From assembly GCA_963728205.1 (NCBI GenBank), contig CAVSIV010000001.1, positions 160,001-224,000 of the forward strand: a DNA stretch of 64,000 bases, given 5' to 3'. Within the stretch, counting starts at the first letter, position 1, and each line of letters starts with the position of its first letter. Under the pieces are notes generated by a model that worked only from the letters and a program-made list of their open reading frames with translations, was not told the origin of the DNA and searched no databases. This stretch comes from an uncultured Chloroflexia bacterium (GTDB taxonomy: Bacteria; Chloroflexota; Dehalococcoidia; UBA2979). A program made the translations under genes and the position numbers. This document shows positions 47,484-57,797 of the stretch, piece after piece.

Positions 47484-48136
47484 CAGATGCGGTACCCGGA
47501 CCCGACCACGGTCTCGACCACGGGCGGATTGCCGAGCCGGCGCCGCAGCGTCATCACCACCACGCGCACCGCGTTCGTGAACGGATCCGTGTGCTCGTCC
47601 CACGCGCGCTCGAGCAGCTCCTCGGTCGAGACCACGCGTCCGTCGGCGCGCAGCAGGATCTCGAGCACCGCGAACTCCTTCGGCGTGAGCCCCACCTCGG
47701 TGCCGTCGCGCGTCACGGTGCGCAGCGCGGGGTCGAGCCGGATGCCGGCGCGTTCGAGGACCGGTGCTCGCGTCTCGGCGCCGCGGCGCACCAGCGCGCG
47801 CAGCCGCGCACGAAGCTCGTCGAAGTCGAATGGCTTCGGGAGGTAGTCGTCCGCGCCGAGGTCGAGGCCCTCGACGCGATCCTCGACCGCACCGGCCGCG
47901 GTCAGCATGAGGATGCGCGCGTGCGAGCCGGACTCGTGGAGGCGCCGGCAGACCTCGTCGCCGTGCAGCACCGGGAGGTTGCGATCGAGGAGCACGACGT
48001 CGTAGTCGCTCACCTCGGCCTTCTCGAGCGCGGTGCCTCCGTCGAAGGCGACGTCTACGGCCCAGCCGTCGCGCCGCAGCCCGCGCGACAGCGCGTCCGC
48101 GAGGTCGCGTTCGTCCTCGACGATGAGCAGGCGCAT
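47483..48136 (-). CDS. OmpR-family response regulator (CutR-like)
   Basis: LDRNLPVLHGDEVC, WDEHTDPFTNAVRVVV. Confidence 0.93.
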   Translation of the reverse strand: MRLLIVEDERDLADALSRGLRRDGWAVDVAFDGGTALEKAEVSDYDVVLLDRNLPVLHGDEVCRRLHESGSHARILMLTAAGAVEDRVEGLDLGADDYLPKPFDFDELRARLRALVRRGAETRAPVLERAGIRLDPALRTVTRDGTEVGLTPKEFAVLEILLRADGRVVSTEELLERAWDEHTDPFTNAVRVVVMTLRRRLGNPPVVETVVGSGYRI

Positions 48137-48183
48137 GGTGGGCTCCCGGCCTCGGCTGGTCGCGCCAGCGTATCGCCACCGAA

Positions 48184-48200
48184 ATAAGGCGCGAGTAAGG
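48184..48200 (-). promoter_or_regulatory. OmpR-type direct repeat (possible autoregulation)
   Basis: Minus strand CCTTAC-N5-CCTTAT, 11-bp period. Confidence 0.5.
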
Positions 48201-48313
48201 CGAGGCTCCGCGGCGAGGCGCTCCGCGGCGAACCCCCTCGCGTGAGCGAGCTGAGATGCCGCGCGGTGCGTGGGGAGCGTTCTCCGGGCGGTCTCGCGGA
48301 CGGCGTGGCCTGC

Positions 48314-49885
48314 TCAGCCCGCTGACGCGGGGCCGTTCGCCGCCGGGCCGGCCCACCGCAGCACCGGGTGGCGTGCCGCCGTCGCCTCGTCCAGGCGGCC
48401 GATCGGGGCGGTGTGCGGCGCGGTGCGCACCAGCTCCGGGTCGCGCGCGGCCTCCTCGGCGATCGCGCGCATCGCCGACGCGAACGCCTCCACGGCCTCG
48501 CGCGACTCCGTCTCCGTCGGCTCGATCATCAGCGCCTCTTCGACGATCAGCGGGAAGTAGACCGTCGGCGGGTGGATGCCATAGTCGATCAGGCGCTTTG
48601 CGATGTCGTAGGTCCGCACGTCCGAGTCGCGGCGCTGGCGCGAGCCCGAGAACACCACCTCGTGCATCACCGCTCGCGGGTAGGGGAGCGCGTACGCGTC
48701 CTCCAGCAGCGCGCGCAGGTAGTTCGCGTTGAGCACCGCGTTCGCCGACGTCGCGCGCAGCCCGGCGAGCCCGAGCGTGCGGATGTAGGCGTAGGCCCGT
48801 AGCAGCACGCCGACGCTGCCGTGGAACTGCTGCAGCTGGCCGATCGAGTCCGCCGGGCGCGTGAACGCGAACCGCTCGTCTTCGTCGGCCGCCGCGCCGT
48901 CGCTTGCCTCGCCGCCCGTGCGCACCACCACCGGCGCCGGCAGGTGCGGCGCGAGCGCGTCGCTGCAGCACACCGGACCCGCGCCGGGCCCCCCGCCGCC
49001 GTGCGGCGTCGCGAATGTCTTGTGCAGGTTGAGGTGCACGACGTCGAACCCGAGGTCGCCGAACCGCACGCGCCCGAGCAGTGCGTTGAGGTTCGCGCCG
49101 TCGCCGTAGAGCAGCGCGCCGTCCGCGTGCACGCGCTCCGCGATCTCCTCGATGCGCGGCTCCCACAGCCCGAGCGTGCTCGGCAGCGTCACCATCAGCG
49201 CCGCCACCGTGCCGTCGAGCTCGCGCTCCAGCGTCGCCAGCTCGATCGCGCCGTCCGGCCCGCTCGGCAGCTCGGTCACCGCGAAGCCGGCCATCGCCGC
49301 GCTCGCCGGGTTCGTGCCGTGCGCGCTGTCGGGGACGAGCACCCGCCGCCGCTGCTCCAGCTCGCCGCGACGTTCGAGCGCGCGCTTCACCATCAGCATG
49401 CCGGCGAGCTCGCCCTGCGCGCCGGCCGCCGGCGCGAGGCTCACCGCCGGCAGCCCCGTGATCGCGGCGAGGCACGACTGCAACTCGAAGAGCACGCGCA
49501 GCGTGCCCTGCACCGTGTCGAGCGGAGCCAGCGGGTGCCCGTCGGCGAACCCCGGCAGCGACGCCACCAGGTCGTCGACCTTCGGGTTGTACTTCATCGT
49601 GCACGAGCCCAGCGGGTAGGTGCCGGTGTCGACGCCGAAGTTGCGGCGCGAGAGCGCGTGGTAGTAGCGCACGAGCTCGCCCTGGCTGAGCGACGGCAGC
49701 CGCACCGACTCGCGCAGCAGCCCGGCCGACGGCAGCGGCGCCGGCGGCCCCTCCCAGCGCTCGACCGCCACCGCGTGTCGCCCCGGCTCCCCGCGGTCGA
49801 ACGCGAGCCGCGCGCCAAAGTCCTCCTCGCGGAAGCCACCGCCGCCGCGGACGGGTTCGACGGGCCAGCGCTCCGGCGTGGTCAT
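48314..49885 (-). CDS. gcvPB: Glycine dehydrogenase subunit 2
   Basis: YPLGSCTMKYNP, SAHGTNPAS, HLNLHKTF, IEPTETES. Confidence 0.96.
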   Translation of the reverse strand: MTTPERWPVEPVRGGGGFREEDFGARLAFDRGEPGRHAVAVERWEGPPAPLPSAGLLRESVRLPSLSQGELVRYYHALSRRNFGVDTGTYPLGSCTMKYNPKVDDLVASLPGFADGHPLAPLDTVQGTLRVLFELQSCLAAITGLPAVSLAPAAGAQGELAGMLMVKRALERRGELEQRRRVLVPDSAHGTNPASAAMAGFAVTELPSGPDGAIELATLERELDGTVAALMVTLPSTLGLWEPRIEEIAERVHADGALLYGDGANLNALLGRVRFGDLGFDVVHLNLHKTFATPHGGGGPGAGPVCCSDALAPHLPAPVVVRTGGEASDGAAADEDERFAFTRPADSIGQLQQFHGSVGVLLRAYAYIRTLGLAGLRATSANAVLNANYLRALLEDAYALPYPRAVMHEVVFSGSRQRRDSDVRTYDIAKRLIDYGIHPPTVYFPLIVEEALMIEPTETESREAVEAFASAMRAIAEEAARDPELVRTAPHTAPIGRLDEATAARHPVLRWAGPAANGPASAG

Positions 49886-49964
49886 GCGGTTACCTCCCGC
49901 GACTGCCCGCGCGGCACCCCCTGGCGACGCGGCGATTGGGTCGCGCGCACGCCCGCGGCAGGGC

Positions 49965-51386
49965 TCACGCCTGCCGCTCGCCGTCGTCGGCGACGCCGTC
50001 CGCGATCTCGCGCAGCGCCGCGATCAGCGCGTCCACGTGCTCCGGCGGGGTCGCCTCCGTCACGCACACGAGCATCGCGTCGCGCGCCTCCGGCTCCGGG
50101 CGGCCCGCGAGCGCGAGCCCGCCCTCGATGCCGCGCGCGCCCAGCGCACGCCCGAGCACTTCCGCCGGCACCGGCCCCCGCACGAGAAACTCCTGGAACC
50201 ATGGCCCGCGCTCGACGACCGCGTAGCCCGGCAGCGCCGCGATCCGCGCCGCCGCGTCGTGCGCGCGCTGGTAACAGAGCTCCGCCGCCGCGCGCAGTCC
50301 CACCGGTCCCAGCGCCTGCACCGAGACCGTGAACGCGAGCGCGACCAGCGACTGCCCCGTCGAGAAGTTGGACGTCGCGCGCTCGCGCCGGATGAACTGC
50401 TCGCGCGCCTGCAGCGTCAGCACGTAGCCGGCCCGCGGCTCGCCGACAGCGTCGCGTGCGTCGCCGGCTCCGGCCGACCCATGCACCTCGCGCGTCCGCC
50501 CCACGATGCGCCCCGGCATCTGCCGCAGAAACTGCTCGCGCGCGGCGAAGATGCCGAGCGACGGACCGCCGAGCCCCGGCGGCCCGGCGAGGTCGCGCCC
50601 CTCGCCCGTCACCAGGTCGACACCCGCGTCGCCCGGCGCCCGCAGCATCCCGAGCGCGAACGGGTCGGCGACCGCGACGCACAGCGCACCGGCGGCGTGC
50701 GCCGCGGCGGCTACCGGCTCGAGGTCAAGGATCGCGCCGAGGAAGTCCGGCTGCTGCACGACCACGCACGCGTGCTCGTCGGTCACGCGATCGACCCCGG
50801 CGACCAGGTCGACCCGCAGCCCGCCGCCGAACGCGTACGTCCGCACCACGTCCACGACGCCCGGGTGTACCGGCTCGAGCAGCGCCACCGCGCGCCGCCC
50901 CGTCACGCGCGACGCCAGCAGGCACGCCTCCGCCGTCGCGCTCGCGCCGTCGTACATCCCGGTGTTCGACACGTCCATGCCGGTCAGCTCGCACACCGTC
51001 GACTGGTACTCGAACGCGGCCTGCAGGGTGCCCTGGCTCACTTCGGGCTGGTACGGCGTGTACGACGTCACGAACTCCGACCGCGCCGTCAGCGCGCCCG
51101 TGACCGCCGGCACCGCGCGGCGGTACGCGCCGGCGCCGAGGAACGACGGCCGCCCGCCGGACGTGTTCTCGCCGGCTCGCGTGCTCAACAGCCGGATCAG
51201 CGGCGCCTCCGCCAGCGCCGGCGGCAGCGCGATCACCGGGTCGCGATGTGCCGGCGGCAGCGCGTCGAACAGCGCCTCGACGCTCGCCAGCCCGAGCCGC
51301 GCGAGCATGACCGCGCGGTCGGCGTCGGTGTTCGGGATGTATGGCGTAGGCGCCGGGGCGGCCGCCCTCGTGTCGTCGTCGGGCAT
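49965..51386 (-). CDS. gcvPA: Glycine dehydrogenase subunit 1
   Basis: YTPYQPEVSQG, MPGRIVG, REQFIRRERATSN. Confidence 0.95.
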   Translation of the reverse strand: MPDDDTRAAAPAPTPYIPNTDADRAVMLARLGLASVEALFDALPPAHRDPVIALPPALAEAPLIRLLSTRAGENTSGGRPSFLGAGAYRRAVPAVTGALTARSEFVTSYTPYQPEVSQGTLQAAFEYQSTVCELTGMDVSNTGMYDGASATAEACLLASRVTGRRAVALLEPVHPGVVDVVRTYAFGGGLRVDLVAGVDRVTDEHACVVVQQPDFLGAILDLEPVAAAAHAAGALCVAVADPFALGMLRAPGDAGVDLVTGEGRDLAGPPGLGGPSLGIFAAREQFLRQMPGRIVGRTREVHGSAGAGDARDAVGEPRAGYVLTLQAREQFIRRERATSNFSTGQSLVALAFTVSVQALGPVGLRAAAELCYQRAHDAAARIAALPGYAVVERGPWFQEFLVRGPVPAEVLGRALGARGIEGGLALAGRPEPEARDAMLVCVTEATPPEHVDALIAALREIADGVADDGERQA

Positions 51387-51391
51387 CGCGG

Positions 51392-51781
51392 CTACTGCTC
51401 GTGCGCGGCGAGCCGCGCGCGGTAGGCGTCCGCCGTCAGCAGCGCGTCGACCTCCGCCGGCTCGCTCACCCGCACGCGGATCATCCAGGCCTCGTCGAAC
51501 GGCGACGCGTTCACGCGCTCCGGCGCGTCCGTCAGCGCCTCGTTACGCGCGACCACCTCGCCGCTCACCGGCGCGAAGAGGTCCGACACCGCCTTCACCG
51601 ACTCGATCACGCCGAACGCCTCGCCCTGCTTCAACGCGCGCCCGACCGCCGGCAGCTCGACGTAGACGACATCGCCGAGCTGCTCCTGTGCGAAGTCGGT
51701 GATGCCGACGGTGGCCTCGCCGTCGGCGAGGCGCACCCATTCGTCCTCGGTCGTGTAGCGCAACTCCGAGGGGACCTCCAC
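51392..51781 (-). CDS. gcvH: Glycine cleavage H protein
   Basis: GITDFAQEQLGD, lipoyl site IESVKAVSD. Confidence 0.96.
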   Translation of the reverse strand: MEVPSELRYTTEDEWVRLADGEATVGITDFAQEQLGDVVYVELPAVGRALKQGEAFGVIESVKAVSDLFAPVSGEVVARNEALTDAPERVNASPFDEAWMIRVRVSEPAEVDALLTADAYRARLAAHEQ

Positions 51782-51808
51782 GTAGCGGCCTTTCCGTTGC
51801 CGCCGGGA

Positions 51809-52942
51809 TCATTCCGAGCGGCGGATGAAGGGGCGGGGCACGACCTCGGCGTCGACGTCGCGCCCGTGGATCTCGATCGCGAGCCGCGTGCCCGGCGCGG
51901 CGAGACCTGCGGGCAGGTACGCCATCGCGATGCCCACGCGGAGCGTGGGGCTGAACGCGCCGCTCGTGAGCGTAGCAACCGCGCGCGGCTCGCTCTCGTC
52001 GCCGGTCGCGTCTCCCGGCGCGTGCACCGGGTAGCCGGCCCGCGGCACGCCGCGGTCGAGCAGCCGCAGGCACGCGAGCCGCCGCTCGGGCGCGCGCGCG
52101 GCAGCGGCGGCGAGCGCGTCGCGACCCGTGAACTCGGCGCCGTCCTCGAGCGTGACCGCCCAGCCGAGCCCGGCCTCGTAGGGGCTCGTGTCGGGCGTGA
52201 TGTCGTGGCCGTGCAGCGGCAGCGCGGCCTCCAGCCGCAGCGTATCGCGTGCCCCCAGCCCACACGGGACGACCCCGGCGGCCAGGCACGCGTCCCACAG
52301 CGCCGCCCCGCGCTCCGCGTCGAGGATGCACTCCGCGCCGTCCTCGCCCGTGTAGCCGGTGCGCCCGACCAGCACCGTCGCGCCGCGCCAGGCGAGCTCG
52401 GTGCAGCGCCGCGGCGCGAGCTCCGCGGCGAGGTCGACCCCGAGCACGTCGCGCAGCCGCGCGAGCGCGGCCGGTCCCTGCACCGCGAGCATCACGGTCT
52501 CGCCGCCGACGTCGCGCATCGCCGCTCCCGGCGCCCGATCCACCGACGCCCGCACGCGCGCCGCGTCGGCCTCCGCGTTCGCGGCGTTGTGCACGATGAG
52601 CCAGCGGTCGGCGTCGACGCGATAGACGAAGACGTCGTCGGCGATGCCGCCGTCGTCGGTCGCGTAGAGCGAGTAGTGGGCGCGGCCGGGGTGCATCCGC
52701 GTCACGTCGTAGGTCGTCACCGCGCGGATGCGCGTGCCGGCGTCGGGCCCCTCAATCCGCACGCGGCCCATGTGCGAGACGTCGAAGACGCCGGCGGCCT
52801 CGCGCACGGCGGCGTGCTCGGCGAGGATGCCGCCCGCGTACTGCAGCGGCATCTCCCAGCCGGCGAACGGCGCGAGCCGCGCGCCCGCCGCGACGTGCCG
52901 CTCGTGGAGCGGCAGGCGTCGCAGCGCTCGTGCCTCCCTCAT
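51809..52942 (-). CDS. gcvT: Glycine cleavage aminomethyltransferase
   Basis: FAGWEMP, FDVSHMG, RTGYTGEDG, GLGARDTLRLEA. Confidence 0.96.
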   Translation of the reverse strand: MREARALRRLPLHERHVAAGARLAPFAGWEMPLQYAGGILAEHAAVREAAGVFDVSHMGRVRIEGPDAGTRIRAVTTYDVTRMHPGRAHYSLYATDDGGIADDVFVYRVDADRWLIVHNAANAEADAARVRASVDRAPGAAMRDVGGETVMLAVQGPAALARLRDVLGVDLAAELAPRRCTELAWRGATVLVGRTGYTGEDGAECILDAERGAALWDACLAAGVVPCGLGARDTLRLEAALPLHGHDITPDTSPYEAGLGWAVTLEDGAEFTGRDALAAAAARAPERRLACLRLLDRGVPRAGYPVHAPGDATGDESEPRAVATLTSGAFSPTLRVGIAMAYLPAGLAAPGTRLAIEIHGRDVDAEVVPRPFIRRSE

Positions 52943-52961
52943 CGCCGCCGCCCGCCCGCGC

Positions 52962-53438
52962 TCACGCGTCGGCGACGTCGGCCGACCACGTGACGTCGAT
53001 CGCGTCCTTCACGCTCTCGTGCGCCGGGCAGCCGCGTGCGTGCACGGCCAGCGCGCGGTCGGCGGTCTCGCGCTGCGCGGCCGGCACCCGCAGGTGGTAC
53101 GTCACGTGGATCCTGGTGATGCGGATCGTGGCGCCGGTCGGGCCCTCGATCGTCCCGTCGACGTCGGCGCTGTAGCTGGAGCGGTCGAACTCGACCTTGC
53201 GGGCGGCCAGGGCCCCCGCGAGCGTGCCGAACATTCAGCCGCCGACCGCGGCCACGATGTGGTCGAGCGTCGCCGCGACCGGCGGGCCCTCCTTCGCGCC
53301 GTAGTACTCGCGCAGCGCGCCCTGCACCCCGTACGCCACGGGCTCGGCCACCTCGCCCATGTAGGCGTGCCGCACGCCGCCCTCGAACACGAGGCGGTTC
53401 TTCGAGATGTACCGGAAGTCGTCGGCCACGGGCTCCAA
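52962..53438 (-). CDS. OsmC-like peroxiredoxin, probable selenoprotein (UGA at 53237-53235 read as Sec)
   Basis: Two ORF-track ORFs are in frame and joined by one TGA: IVAAVGG-U-MFGT; second Cys CPAHES; hairpin at 53219-53199; start may be GTG 53429. Confidence 0.82.
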
Positions 53439-53564
53439 CTTTCGTTGCGGCGCAACCGCGCGCCGCCGACCAGCCTACGCGTCGCGGCGGATGCCGCGTC
53501 GGAGGCGTGAGCCTGCGGCTAGTATTCGCGCGACACCTCGCTGAGGGGCCGGGGGAGATCGCGC

Positions 53565-54254
53565 ATGAACGTCGATCATTTCGTCGCGGTGGTCGACTCG
53601 CTCGCTCACCTGTTGTCGGTAATGGTGTGGCCGGCCGTCGCCGTCTTCCTGCTTGTCCGCTTCTCCGGCCCGCTGAACGGGTTCCTCAGCAGCCTCGGCG
53701 AACTGTCGTTCAAGGGCGGTGGGATCGAGGCCACCGTGCGTCGGCAGCAGATCGAGGCCGCCGCGTCGCTGGGCGTCGCCGCCGGCTCGCGGGCCACGCA
53801 GGCGAACGACCCCGCGACGCCGCGACCAGACGAGATCGCGGAGAGCGTCTCCCGCTCCGTCACGCGTGAGAGCGTTCGGGGCGCCGCAGGTTCGCGGGTG
53901 CTCTGGGTCGACGACCATCCCGACAACAACATCCACGAGCGGCGCGCGCTGGAGTCTCTCGGCGCGCGCGTCACGACCCTGACTTCGACGGACGACGCCC
54001 TCGCCGCGCTCGCCGGTGGCGGGTACGACCTCGTGATCTCCGACATGGGGCGGTCGCCGGATCCTCGCGCCGGGTACACGCTCCTCGACGCGCTGCGCAG
54101 GCGGGGCGACCGCACTCCGTTCGTCGTCTACGCAGGATCCGCCACCGACGAGCAGCGGAAGGAGGCGGCGGAGCACGGCGCGTTCGGCACGACGAACCGT
54201 GCCGATGAACTGCTGGCGCTCGCGCTGCGGGCGATGCGACGACGGCTCGGGTAG
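53565..54254 (+). CDS. Membrane-anchored receiver-domain protein
   Basis: N-terminal TM (VWPAVAVFLL); VLWVDD, VISDMGR receiver motifs. Confidence 0.8.
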   Translation: MNVDHFVAVVDSLAHLLSVMVWPAVAVFLLVRFSGPLNGFLSSLGELSFKGGGIEATVRRQQIEAAASLGVAAGSRATQANDPATPRPDEIAESVSRSVTRESVRGAAGSRVLWVDDHPDNNIHERRALESLGARVTTLTSTDDALAALAGGGYDLVISDMGRSPDPRAGYTLLDALRRRGDRTPFVVYAGSATDEQRKEAAEHGAFGTTNRADELLALALRAMRRRLG

Positions 54255-54258
54255 GCGA

Positions 54259-55305
54259 CTAGCGTGATGCTCCGTCCGGGCCGCTCTCGCCCCGCAGCAG
54301 CGGCCAGTACAGCGGCAGGCTCACCGCGAACGGCACGAAGTAGTAGACGACCCGGAACAGGATCGCCGCGAGCGCCGCGTGCTCGACCGACACGCCGAGC
54401 ACGGCCAGCGTCGCCGTGATCGACCCCTCCTGCACGCCGAGTCCGCCCGGCACGAACGACGCGACCCCCGCGTTCACCCCGACCGCGAACGCCGTCAGCG
54501 CCGCGGCGAACCCTGCCCCGGCGCCCACGGCGGCGAGACAGCACCAGAACGCCACGAGCGTCACGCCCCAGTCCGCGACGATCAGCAGCGCCGGCGCCAG
54601 GCCCGCCGCCGGTCGCGCGCGCACCGCCGTCGCCGCGCGGTCGAGGCCCGCGCCGAGATCGTCGAGCGCGGCCGCCGCGTGCCGCGCTCGACCCGCGCCG
54701 AGCGCCACCCGCGTGCCCCAGCGGCCGGCGCGCAGCAGCGCGCCCCGGGCGCGGCGCGACCACAGCGCCGCGGTCAGCGCCAGCACGGCGACCGCCGACA
54801 GCGCCCCCGCCACCAGCGCCGCCCCCGCGCCGGCGCCCGAGAGCGGGTGCACCGCCGCGAGCAGCAGCAGTCCCGCCGGCAGCAGCGCGAGCATCGCCAC
54901 GGTGTTCAGGTACGACTGCACGACGGTCATCGCGAGCACGCTTCCCGGCGACTCGCCGTGCTCGCGCAGCAGCGCCGTGCGCACCGAGTAGCCGGCCACC
55001 CCGCCCAGCGACAGCACGTGGTTGAGCGCGAACGACACGTAGCTCGCGCGGAACAGCGGCCCCGTCGGCGCGCGCACACCCACGATGCGCCCCACCGCCA
55101 CCATCCCCGCGCTCAGCGCGAGGTACGAGCCGGCCGTCGCCGTCAGCGCCGGCACGACCAGCGTCCACCGCGTCTGCCCGAGCAGCCGCCCGACCTGCCG
55201 CCAGTCGAGCACGACCACCAGCGCCGCCGCGAGCACGAGCACCGCGATCGCCGACACCAGCGCGGCGTGGCCGCGCGCGGGCGGACGCTCGGCGGCGCTC
55301 GCCAT
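54259..55305 (-). CDS. Lysylphosphatidylglycerol synthase TM (flippase-like) domain protein
   Basis: Multi-TM, PGGLGVQE, FRVVYYF; 2 nt downstream of the MprF-like gene. Confidence 0.85.
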   Translation of the reverse strand: MASAAERPPARGHAALVSAIAVLVLAAALVVVLDWRQVGRLLGQTRWTLVVPALTATAGSYLALSAGMVAVGRIVGVRAPTGPLFRASYVSFALNHVLSLGGVAGYSVRTALLREHGESPGSVLAMTVVQSYLNTVAMLALLPAGLLLLAAVHPLSGAGAGAALVAGALSAVAVLALTAALWSRRARGALLRAGRWGTRVALGAGRARHAAAALDDLGAGLDRAATAVRARPAAGLAPALLIVADWGVTLVAFWCCLAAVGAGAGFAAALTAFAVGVNAGVASFVPGGLGVQEGSITATLAVLGVSVEHAALAAILFRVVYYFVPFAVSLPLYWPLLRGESGPDGASR

Positions 55306-55307
55306 CG

Positions 55308-57041
55308 CTAGCCCTCGGTCAACCGCGTCAGCGCGAGCGCCGTGCGCGCCAGCCCGACCGGCCCACCGCGGTACGCGAGATAGCGGTCCTCCCAGTCGGG
55401 CTCGAACTTCGCCTTGTAGTTGCGCAGTCCGCGATACGAGAACAGCCGGTTCAGGCGGTCGAAGATCTCCCGCACGGCACGCTCCGTCAGCGTCGCGTCG
55501 GGGTGCTCGCCCACGCCGGCGAACGGCGCAAGACCGAGGTCGAAGCGCGTGAACCCGCGCACGTGGCAGTCGAGCAGCACCGTCGTGAAGAGGTAGTCCA
55601 TCACGCCGTTCGGCACGCCGGTGCGGTGGCGCATCAGGTCGATCGTCGCCTCGCCCGGCCGGTACGACGGGATCTCGTTCACGAATGCGACCAGCAGGCC
55701 CTCGGCGTCGCGCAGCACGAACAGCGGCGACGACTGGATGTAGCGCGGCTCGAACGCACCCAGCGTGAATCCGCGCTCGCGCCGCCCGGGCAGCGTGAGC
55801 CAGTCGCGCGACACCGCCTCCACCTCCGCCATCACCGCCGCGGGGTGTGGCGGCTCGTGGCGTGACGCGACGTAGCCCTCGCGCTCGTAGCGGCGGCGGA
55901 TGTAGCGGAAGTCCTTCGTCTCGGCCGTCTGCGTCGCGAAGCGCTCGAGGTCGACCGACGCTTCTTCGCCGATCTTCAGCAGGGCGAAGCCGAGCTCGCG
56001 GTACAGGTCGAGCCACCTGTCGGTGACCTGGTGCATCGCCACCGCCCAGCCGTTGTCCTCGCCGAAGCGCACGAAGCCCTCGACGGTCGCGCGCACGGCG
56101 GCGGGATTGCCGGCCGGGTCGCCGAGCGCGATGCCGACCGCCATCGTCGCGCGGTAGGCAATTGCCGCTCGGCGCTCCGGGTCGAAGAAGTACGACTTGT
56201 CGTGCCAGAGCTTGAACTCGTCGAGCGCCGTGCCACCGAAGCGGCGGAGCAGCGCCTCGACCTCGACGCGCTCGCGCGGGAGCACGCGCAGGCGGTAGCG
56301 GATCGGCTGCACCAGCGCGAGCGCGACGAGCGCGACCGCGGAGATGCCCGCGATGCGCAGCGAATCGAGAAACCACATCGCGTGGCGCGTCTCGGGCTCG
56401 AGGCTGTAGTTCGCGCCGAGCAGGAGGAACTGGTCGAGCGTCTGCTGCACGGCCTCGCGCAGGTCGAACGTCTGGCCGAAGTCGCGGCGCTCGAGGAGCC
56501 AGAACCCGGCGGCGCCGTAGAGGAACGCGGCGGCGAGGATCGCCGCGGCGAGCGCCACGCCCTGCGCGATGCTCACCGGCTCGCTGCGCACGGTGAACCG
56601 CCCGCGGAACACGATCAGCAGCCCCACCAGCGCGGCGGGCGCGACGGCGAGCGGCCACGACTCGTCCCCCTTCAGCAGGTGCGACACCGTCGCCGCCGCG
56701 GCGGCCGCGAGGGCGAAGCCCCACGCGACGCGCCGCCGTCGCAGCAGGTGGTACGCGAGGTAGACGAGCGCGAGCCCGAACGCCGTGCCGGCGGCGCGGC
56801 TCCAGTGATGCACGCCGAGGGGGAACGCGTAGCCGGCGAGCGCGGGATGACGCGAGACGCGAAAGAGCAGCGGCGCCGAGAGGCTGACGACGCCGTTCGC
56901 CAGCGTGACGAGCGCGATCAGCCAGACCGGCCAGCGCGCCGGCTCGGGGAGAATGTGCCGCCAGGCCCGGAGTACGGCGCTGCCCCGCAGTCGGAGGAAC
57001 TGCTCCGCGCCGGGAGCACGTTCGGTAGACGGAGCAGCCAT
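55308..57041 (-). CDS. mprF: Aminoacyl-phosphatidylglycerol synthase (MprF C-terminal, DUF2156)
   Basis: DKSYFF, ALGDP, KIGEEA, IDLMRH, LGLAP, GLRNYKAKFEPDWE. Confidence 0.88.
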   Translation of the reverse strand: MAAPSTERAPGAEQFLRLRGSAVLRAWRHILPEPARWPVWLIALVTLANGVVSLSAPLLFRVSRHPALAGYAFPLGVHHWSRAAGTAFGLALVYLAYHLLRRRRVAWGFALAAAAAATVSHLLKGDESWPLAVAPAALVGLLIVFRGRFTVRSEPVSIAQGVALAAAILAAAFLYGAAGFWLLERRDFGQTFDLREAVQQTLDQFLLLGANYSLEPETRHAMWFLDSLRIAGISAVALVALALVQPIRYRLRVLPRERVEVEALLRRFGGTALDEFKLWHDKSYFFDPERRAAIAYRATMAVGIALGDPAGNPAAVRATVEGFVRFGEDNGWAVAMHQVTDRWLDLYRELGFALLKIGEEASVDLERFATQTAETKDFRYIRRRYEREGYVASRHEPPHPAAVMAEVEAVSRDWLTLPGRRERGFTLGAFEPRYIQSSPLFVLRDAEGLLVAFVNEIPSYRPGEATIDLMRHRTGVPNGVMDYLFTTVLLDCHVRGFTRFDLGLAPFAGVGEHPDATLTERAVREIFDRLNRLFSYRGLRNYKAKFEPDWEDRYLAYRGGPVGLARTALALTRLTEG

Positions 57042-57059
57042 TCGGACGATCATAGGTTG

Positions 57060-57797
57060 ATGACGCGGTCCGACCAACGGCCCCCTTGCCCCGGCGCGCA
57101 GGCCCGCGCCGAGCGGCCGGGGCAGGCGGATGGGGAGCCGCCGGCACGCGCACGCGGCCGCCGCCGGCGCCGCTGGCCGGGGACCTGGCCGGCCACGATT
57201 GTGATTGGCGTCGCGGTCGTCGCAATCGGCATCGCGCTCGCGCCGCAGAGCGCGGCGCAGCACCGCGACCTCGTCGCGCGGCTGGGCGTGACCCCGCGCG
57301 CGCTCACGTCGTTCCGATGGTGGACGCTCGCGGTCTCGCCGGTCGTGCAGTCGGACCCCGGCATCGGTCCGCTCTTCTGGTCGCAGGCGGTGGCGGTCGT
57401 CGCGAGCCTGGCGCTGCTCGAGCCGCGAGCCGGCAGCGTGCGTACCGCCGCGCTCTTCTTCGGCTCGGAGCTGTTCGTCGAGCCGGTGCGCCTCGCGAGC
57501 CTGGCCGGGCTCGCGAGGCTGGGGAACGCGTCTGCGGAGGCGCTCGTGCACGTGGGCGACACCGGTTCGTCCGCAGCCGTGACTGCCGTCGCGGCGGCGT
57601 TCGTCACGACGTTGCCGTCGCGACTCGCGCGCGCGGGCTACGTGGGCCTCGCGCTGTGGATCGCGTGGAGCGTGCACGCGTTCCCGCTCGACGTCGCCAT
57701 CGATCACGCGGCGGGCGCGGCGTGCGGGCTGCTCGTGGCGGCGTGGTGGCGATGGCGGCGGACGCGTGCGGCCGCCGCCACGAGCGCGGCCGGCTGA
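57060..57797 (+). CDS. Rhomboid-like membrane protein
   Basis: WWTL..SP, DTGSSA and DHAAG (GxS...H); true start probably further downstream. Confidence 0.55.
   Translation: MTRSDQRPPCPGAQARAERPGQADGEPPARARGRRRRRWPGTWPATIVIGVAVVAIGIALAPQSAAQHRDLVARLGVTPRALTSFRWWTLAVSPVVQSDPGIGPLFWSQAVAVVASLALLEPRAGSVRTAALFFGSELFVEPVRLASLAGLARLGNASAEALVHVGDTGSSAAVTAVAAAFVTTLPSRLARAGYVGLALWIAWSVHAFPLDVAIDHAAGAACGLLVAAWWRWRRTRAAAATSAAG

Follow-up and report, generated by a model that had tools for sequence, protein, structure and literature searches.

The 64,000-nt stretch of DNA analyzed here (the window) is taken from contig CAVSIV010000001.1 of an uncultured Chloroflexia bacterium (assembly GCA_963728205.1, positions 160,001–224,000 of the forward strand), placed by GTDB in the Dehalococcoidia (UBA2979). 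Its minus strand carries a gene of the OsmC family, osmC, which contains an in-frame TGA codon and is followed by genes of the glycine cleavage system (gcv; Table 1). Two open reading frames (ORFs), 53235–53438 and 52962–53234, share one frame and meet at this codon, where the junction reads IVAAVGG-TGA-MFGTLAG. A preliminary description of the stretch had read them as one gene split by a single TGA, and the frame from 53438 to 52962 indeed holds one internal TGA (53237–53235) and encodes, when read through, an OsmC-family protein of 158 aa. The same gene terminates in TGA (52964–52962), which indicates that TGA elsewhere serves as a stop codon here. Translation may start at TTG 53438 or GTG 53429, the latter being the better fit to the MADDF... 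N-termini of homologs. On the same strand, the ATG of gcvT (52942) lies 19 nt beyond the osmC stop codon, a distance previously put at about 20 nt. As set out below, osmC is very probably a true selenoprotein gene, in which UGA codon 68 would be decoded as selenocysteine (Sec).

The TGA codon is conserved at the Sec column in all relatives compared. It occurs in 39 of 39 loci from species genomes, covering Dehalococcoidia, Ktedonobacteria, Rokubacteria/Methylomirabilota and "Chloroflexia," in 80 of 80 loci from metagenomes, which are the best among 314 relatives found there, and in all 19 matching genomes of a phylum sample, at identities as low as 34%. This sample is an even set of 401 genomes, in which the OsmC gene was matched in the window genome and 18 others. 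Protein conservation in the homologous loci is strong on both sides of the column. Furthermore, 18 of the 20 full-length database homologs displayed carry Cys opposite the UGA (motif A-G-C-L-x-G-T, 28–55% identity), as the preliminary description had expected; Ser occupies the column in one of the remaining two, and the other is out of register. Database entries belonging to the window's own subfamily are halves that stop at residue 67 or begin at residue 69. A few full-length entries show W at the Sec column, presumably a TGA translated with another table.

The RNA directly downstream of the UGA is constrained as well. The GC hairpin that had been placed 16 nt past the UGA was recovered at that position and with that fold, as GCGGGGGCC-CUG-GCCGCCCGC (53219–53199), its first base being the 16th nt past the codon. 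Each of the 39 sequences that were folded has a hairpin whose end falls on one and the same Arg codon, with energies between -8.5 and -20.9 kcal/mol. RNAalifold returned only three consensus pairs for 22 sequences, and the hairpin registers differ between the closest clade and the Rokubacteria/Ktedonobacteria clade. The claim is therefore one of a conserved hairpin and not of pair-by-pair covariation. Synonymous codon choice collapses right after the UGA, with CTG for Leu+9 in 107/107 sequences, GGG for Gly+11 in 100/100 and GCA for Ala+10 in 78/83. Across conserved four- to sixfold codons in 108 distinct sequences, mean synonymous-codon entropy is 0.62 bits for eight codons between +2 and +12, as opposed to 1.45 bits for 44 codons elsewhere (p = 4e-4 in a one-sided Mann-Whitney test, a value to be taken as no more than indicative since the sequences are related). 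Codons +3 to +12 form the stretch of lowest synonymous entropy in the gene.

The genome to which the window belongs (G000) comprises 4.1 Mb on six contigs and is 89% complete. Genes of the Sec machinery, which the preliminary description proposed to look for, were found: selB (310 bits) and selD (364 bits, with one TGA of its own) both exceed their cut-offs, and a tRNA-Sec matches Rfam RF01852 at 73.8 bits, while selA scores above its cut-off (408 bits) and is split over two overlapping frames (G000:C2:332097–333424, outside the window). A second tRNA-SeC called by Aragorn at C1:604129–604220 (92 nt, 80% G+C) has no match to the Rfam tRNA-Sec model and is probably a false call.

Certain of these observations count against the overall reading. 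The incompleteness of the genome is one, and the hairpin energy is another, being ordinary for DNA of 72% G+C (z = -1.16; 29 of 200 shuffles fold equally well); the evidential weight of the hairpin comes from its conservation, not from its folding energy. The split selA is a third. Its frame switch, close to a CTCTCTC run (approximately C2:333050–333085), may be either an indel of the assembly or a real frameshift. A copy of the lipoamide dehydrogenase gene (lpd) that is split over three frames points to indel errors in the assembly, although selA may also be truly defective.

The read-through protein matches Pfam PF02566 (OsmC) at 44.8 bits (cut-off 27.5). Its C-terminal 90 aa alone reach 34.5 bits, and the N-terminal 67 aa alone have no Pfam match and include neither catalytic residue. 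An AlphaFold2 (AF2) model shows the OsmC/Ohr fold with a mean predicted local distance difference test score (pLDDT) of 95 and a predicted template modeling score (pTM) of 0.88; the first row of the input (P0001) carries one artefactual C-terminal residue from the read-through stop codon. All top Foldseek matches in the PDB are OsmC/Ohr chains (2onf, E = 1.4e-8, TM 0.76/0.85). The best solved match of the family profile is Thermus thermophilus OsmC (1ukk, E = 4e-7), and Ta0195 and Escherichia coli OsmC were also matched. In the solved OsmC/Ohr proteins 1n2f, 1ukk and 1nye, the first catalytic Cys is the aligned counterpart of residue U68. Cys137, located in GCPAHES at a spacing of 69 residues, aligns with the Cys of CP(V/Y)S in T. 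thermophilus OsmC, E. coli OsmC and Pseudomonas aeruginosa Ohr and is invariant in 50 aligned family members. These alignments agree with the earlier assignment of the UGA to the first catalytic Cys site and of CPAHES to the second. R23 and D59 are conserved in the family alignment and are candidate equivalents of the catalytic Arg and Glu. The proposal of a hidden selenocysteine OsmC is thus supported by the Cys homologs, the alignment of the catalytic columns, the hairpin and the Sec machinery.

An "OsmC-like protein" selenoprotein family with the motif UxxT is already in the literature (Zhang, Fomenko & Gladyshev 2005, PMC1088965; relisted in PMC13188914) and is curated as NCBIfam NF041052 (OsmC_like_Se). 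As far as the available part of the 2005 account goes, both families share the PF02566 fold, Sec in place of the first catalytic Cys and a bacterial hairpin of the selenocysteine insertion sequence (SECIS) type, which follows the UGA closely on its 3' side and whose small apical loop contains G. They differ in their motif, which is U-M-F/Y-G-T (UxxxT) in the window. The window protein also falls far below the NF041052 cut-off (25.1 versus 95 bits); 31 of 50 family members match this model weakly (best E = 3.2e-8), and the genome search gave no match to it. Nor does the protein reach the cut-off for OsmC proper (TIGR03562, 18.4 versus 85.8 bits), and it has no match to Ohr (TIGR03561) at E ≤ 0.01, a model that three of 50 family members match weakly (best 5.2e-5). 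On sequence grounds, the window gene is assigned to an OsmC subfamily that is separate from the curated seleno-OsmC and is split by public annotation.

The four genes downstream of osmC, namely gcvT, gcvH, gcvPA and gcvPB, are contiguous on the same strand and each exceeds its NCBIfam equivalog cut-off. With osmC as first gene, they would form a probable transcription unit osmC-gcvT-gcvH-gcvPA-gcvPB, behind which genes for an OmpR-type response regulator and a histidine kinase are located. A single gcvH was found in the window genome (one PF01597 match). E60, S61 and the lipoyl-bearing Lys63 of GcvH are invariant across seven aligned GcvH proteins. The operon lacks a gene for lipoamide dehydrogenase (Lpd, the L-protein), as the preliminary description had stated; since two genes above the TIGR01350 cut-off are present elsewhere in the genome, this absence is no anomaly. 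A lipoamide-dehydrogenase-like gene outside the window (G000:C6:1849198–1850543) is broken into three successive segments, in different frames, that match TIGR01350.

Table 1. Features of the osmC-gcv region of the window, with positions on the 64,000-nt stretch and the basis of each assignment.
Feature	Position	Strand	Basis or remarks
Probable Sec-OsmC gene (osmC)	52962..53438	-	158 codons + TGA stop; one frame, Pfam OsmC, AF2 fold
UGA codon 68, predicted Sec, at the peroxidatic-Cys column	53235..53237	-	TGA in homologous loci; Cys homologs
TGC, Cys137 in GCPAHES, presumed resolving cysteine	53028..53030	-	Alignment
SECIS-like hairpin (stem of 8 bp with a bulged G; CCUG as apical loop)	53199..53219	-	Fold and conservation
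gcvT (aminomethyltransferase)	51809..52942	-	NF001567 383.9 bits, TIGR00528 313.5 bits, both above cut-offs
gcvH	51392..51781	-	TIGR00527 156.9 bits; lipoyl-lysine K63 codon 51595–51593
gcvPA	49965..51386	-	NF001696 466.2 bits
gcvPB, last gene of the cluster	48314..49885	-	NF003346 663.2 bits

Upstream of osmC and divergent from it, at a distance of 126 bp, lies a gene for a 229-aa protein with a C-terminal receiver domain only (53565–54254, plus strand), which is a possible regulator of the osmC-gcv cluster. The region beyond (54262–57398, minus strand) encodes MprF-like functions in two adjoining frames, with LPG_synthase_TM in 54262–55329 and LPG_synthase_C within 55311–57398.

Comparison with relatives revealed that gcvH belongs to the same-strand cluster immediately downstream of osmC in eight of the ten closest relatives (66–79% identity). 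The linked loci are the window, L017, L059, L056/L060, L015, L016, L103 and L105; apart from gcvH, no gene is shared by the whole set. Three layouts occur among them: osmC-gcvTHP, osmC followed by a LipL-like gene and gcvT/H, and osmC-gcvH alone. The window has osmC-gcvT-H-PA-PB. An additional gene, lplX, follows osmC in L017 from genome G061 (osmC-lplX-gcvT-H-PA, the locus ending within gcvPA), G004 (osmC-lplX-gcvT-H-PA-PB), L105 (osmC-lplX-gcvT, where the contig ends) and G028 (osmC-lplX-gcvH, followed by a convergent gene of the major facilitator superfamily). The short order osmC-gcvH is found in L015 from G499, L016 from G500 and L103. lplX encodes a product of approximately 250 aa with an LplA/B catalytic domain, is missing from the window's cluster, and has its best NCBIfam matches, far below cut-off, among LipL/LipM-type octanoyl/lipoyl-[GcvH]:protein transferases. 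Between osmC and gcvT or gcvH it was located at L017:4461–5285, L059:6957–7700 and L060:222–974, and it is also present at L215, L217, L224, L226 and L233.

The genomes G499, G500, G028 and G004, like that of the window, contain one gcvH each above cut-off, which lies beside osmC. G004 passes the cut-offs for both GcvPB and GcvT. In G499, G500 and G028 (the last 90% complete), neither GcvPB (best 33.5 bits, cut-off 441) nor GcvT (best 136.6 bits, cut-off 235.85) was found above cut-off. Lpd is present in all four. As three relatives thus keep osmC-(LipL-like)-gcvH without detected P and T proteins, the conserved core consists of OsmC and GcvH and not of the glycine-cleaving enzymes. Within the window's taxonomic order, the OsmC gene occurs in 4 of 99 genomes and gcvH in 50. 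Twenty of the 46 gcvH-positive relatives without an OsmC gene were inspected, long contigs being preferred, and no OsmC homolog was detected in them (tblastn, E ≤ 1e-6). All 20 have gcvT-gcvH, with gcvPA next in 19 and lplX before gcvT in five. The adjacency of osmC and gcvH favors a selenoperoxidase that would depend on lipoyl-GcvH.

Related pairings of OsmC with lipoylated proteins provide a frame for this reading. In the hydrogenosomes of Trichomonas vaginalis, Nyvltova and colleagues reportedly showed by biochemical means in 2016 that an OsmC protein is associated with the H and L proteins of an incomplete glycine decarboxylase complex. G499, G500 and G028 resemble it in combining an OsmC-fold protein and a lipoylated H-protein where P and T proteins are lacking or undetected and Lpd is available. 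In contrast, the Trichomonas system belongs to a eukaryotic organelle and uses a Cys enzyme, whereas the present one is bacterial, is predicted to contain Sec and is proposed from gene order; the window itself, moreover, has a full gcvTHP set. Lipoyl-dependent peroxidases of the Ohr/OsmC type are said to have been described by Cussiol and colleagues in 2010, and PDB entries 6ebg and 6ebd contain Ohr with dihydrolipoamide. The window protein resembles these enzymes in its fold and in its two catalytic residues, which are approximately 60–70 positions apart (68 and 137 here), but it would have Sec for Cys and falls below the TIGR03562 and TIGR03561 cut-offs. Enzymes of this type are reduced by dihydrolipoamide or lipoylated proteins, and the same is proposed for the window protein.

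According to the accessible part of a further study, E. coli OsmC and Ohr are active in lipoamide/Lpd assays, and Trichomonas OsmC may require the L and H proteins (Meireles et al. 2017, PMC5384416). For Hyphomicrobium denitrificans, a GcvH-like protein has been proposed as donor to OsmC (bioRxiv 10.64898/2026.10.01.755906). To the extent that this preprint was available, its GcvH_1 (Hden_1299) and OsmC (Hden_1301) likewise form a bacterial neighborhood of a lipoyl carrier and an OsmC protein, which its authors read as an electron-donor pair; the carrier there is a dedicated GcvH-like paralog beside a classical GcvH, whereas here it would be the only GcvH of the genome. No publication joining OsmC, selenocysteine and lipoyl was found, and the portions of the literature on OsmC and GcvH that were available contain no Sec-OsmC ahead of gcv genes. 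Nor is a gcv context mentioned in the available parts of the accounts of the earlier Sec-OsmC family (PMC1088965, PMC13188914). The new part is hence the osmC-gcv gene context; Sec-OsmC itself has been in print since 2005.

A working model can be drawn from these data. SelB and Sec-tRNA(Sec), bound to the hairpin 16–36 nt downstream, would recode UGA68 to Sec and yield an OsmC-fold peroxidase with two catalytic residues, Sec68 and Cys137. Sec68 would reduce a hydroperoxide, probably an organic one, and become a selenenic acid, which would then condense with Cys137 to a selenenylsulfide. The only GcvH of the cell would then reduce this bond through the dihydrolipoyl arm at its Lys63. Lipoyl-GcvH would in turn be re-reduced by lipoamide dehydrogenase and NADH and, where P and T proteins exist, by glycine cleavage as well. 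That lipoyl-GcvH is the physiological reductant of Sec-OsmC is a step on which the chances appear evenly balanced. The preliminary description had proposed electron flow from dihydrolipoyl-GcvH to Sec-OsmC; the carrier gains support from the adjoining gcvH in eight of the ten closest relatives, while glycine as the fuel does not, P and T proteins being undetected in three of them.

Several observations weigh against a functional link with GcvH. No gcv neighbors are present at 35 other genome loci, at 18 loci of the phylum sample or at 77 more distant metagenome loci, and L018 and L104, among the ten closest, have none either. The synteny suggested earlier thus holds for the closest relatives and not beyond that clade. 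In a tree of 33 chosen rows (all ten closest plus representatives, with about 100 near-duplicates left out), the Rokubacteria/Ktedonobacteria clade is resolved (100/100) and the linked sequences form an unresolved grade, so that a single insertion upstream of a (lplX-)gcvTHP operon is possible. Retention of gcvH without P and T proteins does not require OsmC, because an orphan gcvH with a LipL-like gene suits a lipoyl-relay pathway anyway. Co-occurrence in the phylum sample is uninformative, since gcvH is present in 349 of 401 genomes as background and in 17 of the 18 OsmC-positive ones; the former tally includes five unpublished genomes (G325, G243, G442, G370 and G271), none of them among the 19 OsmC-positive genomes. 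Finally, no promoter-like and no terminator-like sites were detected in 47800–53800, a scan that is uninformative at 72% G+C.

Outside the linked clade, no other recurring partner gene for OsmC was found. At L064:702–1505 and L065:676–1485, from another family of the phylum, the gene just upstream combines an AhpC/TSA with a DsbD_N domain and has TetR regulators on its flanks, which places the same selenoprotein family in a different redox context. At L062:2616–3218 (G341), approximately 700 bp downstream of Sec-OsmC, an ORF matches the C-terminal part of GRDB (glycine/sarcosine/betaine reductase selenoprotein B) and may be a second selenoprotein gene. Genes of the GCV_H family occur in four to seven copies in some genomes of the phylum, e.g., G221, G206, G210 and G117, which hints at H-protein paralogs with roles beyond glycine cleavage.

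The lack of gcv neighbors outside the clade can also be read as a sign that the selenoprotein is real and its position a historical accident. According to this explanation, osmC landed once upstream of (lplX-)gcvT-gcvH-gcvP and was then carried along, its reductant being thioredoxin, a lipoylated E2 or a small thiol. A single origin of the linkage is compatible with the tree, and the neighbors elsewhere are heterogeneous, as the AhpC/TSA-DsbD_N gene and TetR regulators at L064 and L065 illustrate. However, the adjacency has outlasted at least three remodelings (gain or loss of the LipL-like gene, of gcvT and of gcvP), osmC and gcvH became immediate neighbors in L015, L016 and L103, and lipoyl-dependent reduction is a mode documented for Ohr/OsmC in the accessible part of the published record (PMC5384416). 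An accident of this kind is a possibility to be taken seriously, although not a probable one.

The proposal of a lipoyl-GcvH-dependent selenoperoxidase also exists in a stronger version, in which the enzyme mainly re-oxidizes dihydrolipoyl-GcvH in place of the L-protein and passes the electrons of glycine cleavage directly to peroxides. osmC heads a gcvT-containing cluster in the window, G061/L017, G004 and L105, with gcvP included where the contig reaches it, and with one gcvH in G000 any exchange between OsmC and GcvH would share the pool made by the P and T proteins. On the other hand, osmC-gcvH is kept in G499, G500 and G028, where P and T proteins above cut-off were not found, each of the five genomes checked contains Lpd genes, and an operon without lpd is no evidence of a bypass of the L-protein. 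This version is accordingly rated as improbable. The broader idea, that the single H-protein doubles as electron carrier of Sec-OsmC, so that in the presence of P and T proteins glycine oxidation would drive peroxide reduction directly, with no part played by the L-protein or NAD(H), and osmC-(LipL-like)-gcvH would elsewhere constitute a free-standing lipoyl-selenoperoxidase module, is a little less doubtful and still unlikely. "Glycine-fuelled" operation, as the preliminary description called it, is conceivable for the window organism, where one and the same GcvH would have to supply both systems; it is, however, neither required nor a conserved feature, and as a description of the system it has a low probability.

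It is very unlikely that the protein is not a peroxidase at all but a selenol/thiol protein of the OsmC fold that either targets the lipoyl arm, repairing or protecting lipoyl-GcvH after its oxidation or modification, or serves under a different thiol stress, for example arsenite. Its failure to reach the OsmC-proper and Ohr equivalog models would fit such a role; yet no ars gene was seen among the window neighbors scanned, and both catalytic columns and the fold of the peroxidatic OsmC/Ohr proteins are retained. A true stop at the TGA, leaving two small ORFs or a pseudogene, is barely credible: gene callers and public records treat the codon in this way, and selA is frameshifted in this assembly, but a nonsense mutation would not persist at one column with conserved flanks at more than 130 loci in several phyla, a conserved hairpin with frozen synonymous sites would not be expected, and the product of the first ORF would be devoid of a Pfam match and of both catalytic residues.

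Public databases currently file the window's OsmC subfamily as 90-aa "OsmC family protein" fragments or as orphan N-terminal pieces. From this filing and the failure of NF041052 to capture them, it follows that more than 100 genes from soil Chloroflexota, Rokubacteria/Methylomirabilota and relatives are mis-called. To our knowledge, Trichomonas is so far the only case in which a redox role of the H-protein in peroxide defense was demonstrated, and for Hyphomicrobium such a role has been proposed. The osmC-gcvH pair in genomes without detected P and T proteins represents a simple bacterial test system for the H-protein as a redox carrier in peroxide defense. If the broader idea of a single H-protein that doubles as electron carrier of Sec-OsmC is true, the system would be a bacterial, selenium-using counterpart of that in the Trichomonas hydrogenosome, with GcvH moonlighting in redox defense, and in the window organism one pool of H-protein would join one-carbon and glycine metabolism to peroxide detoxification.

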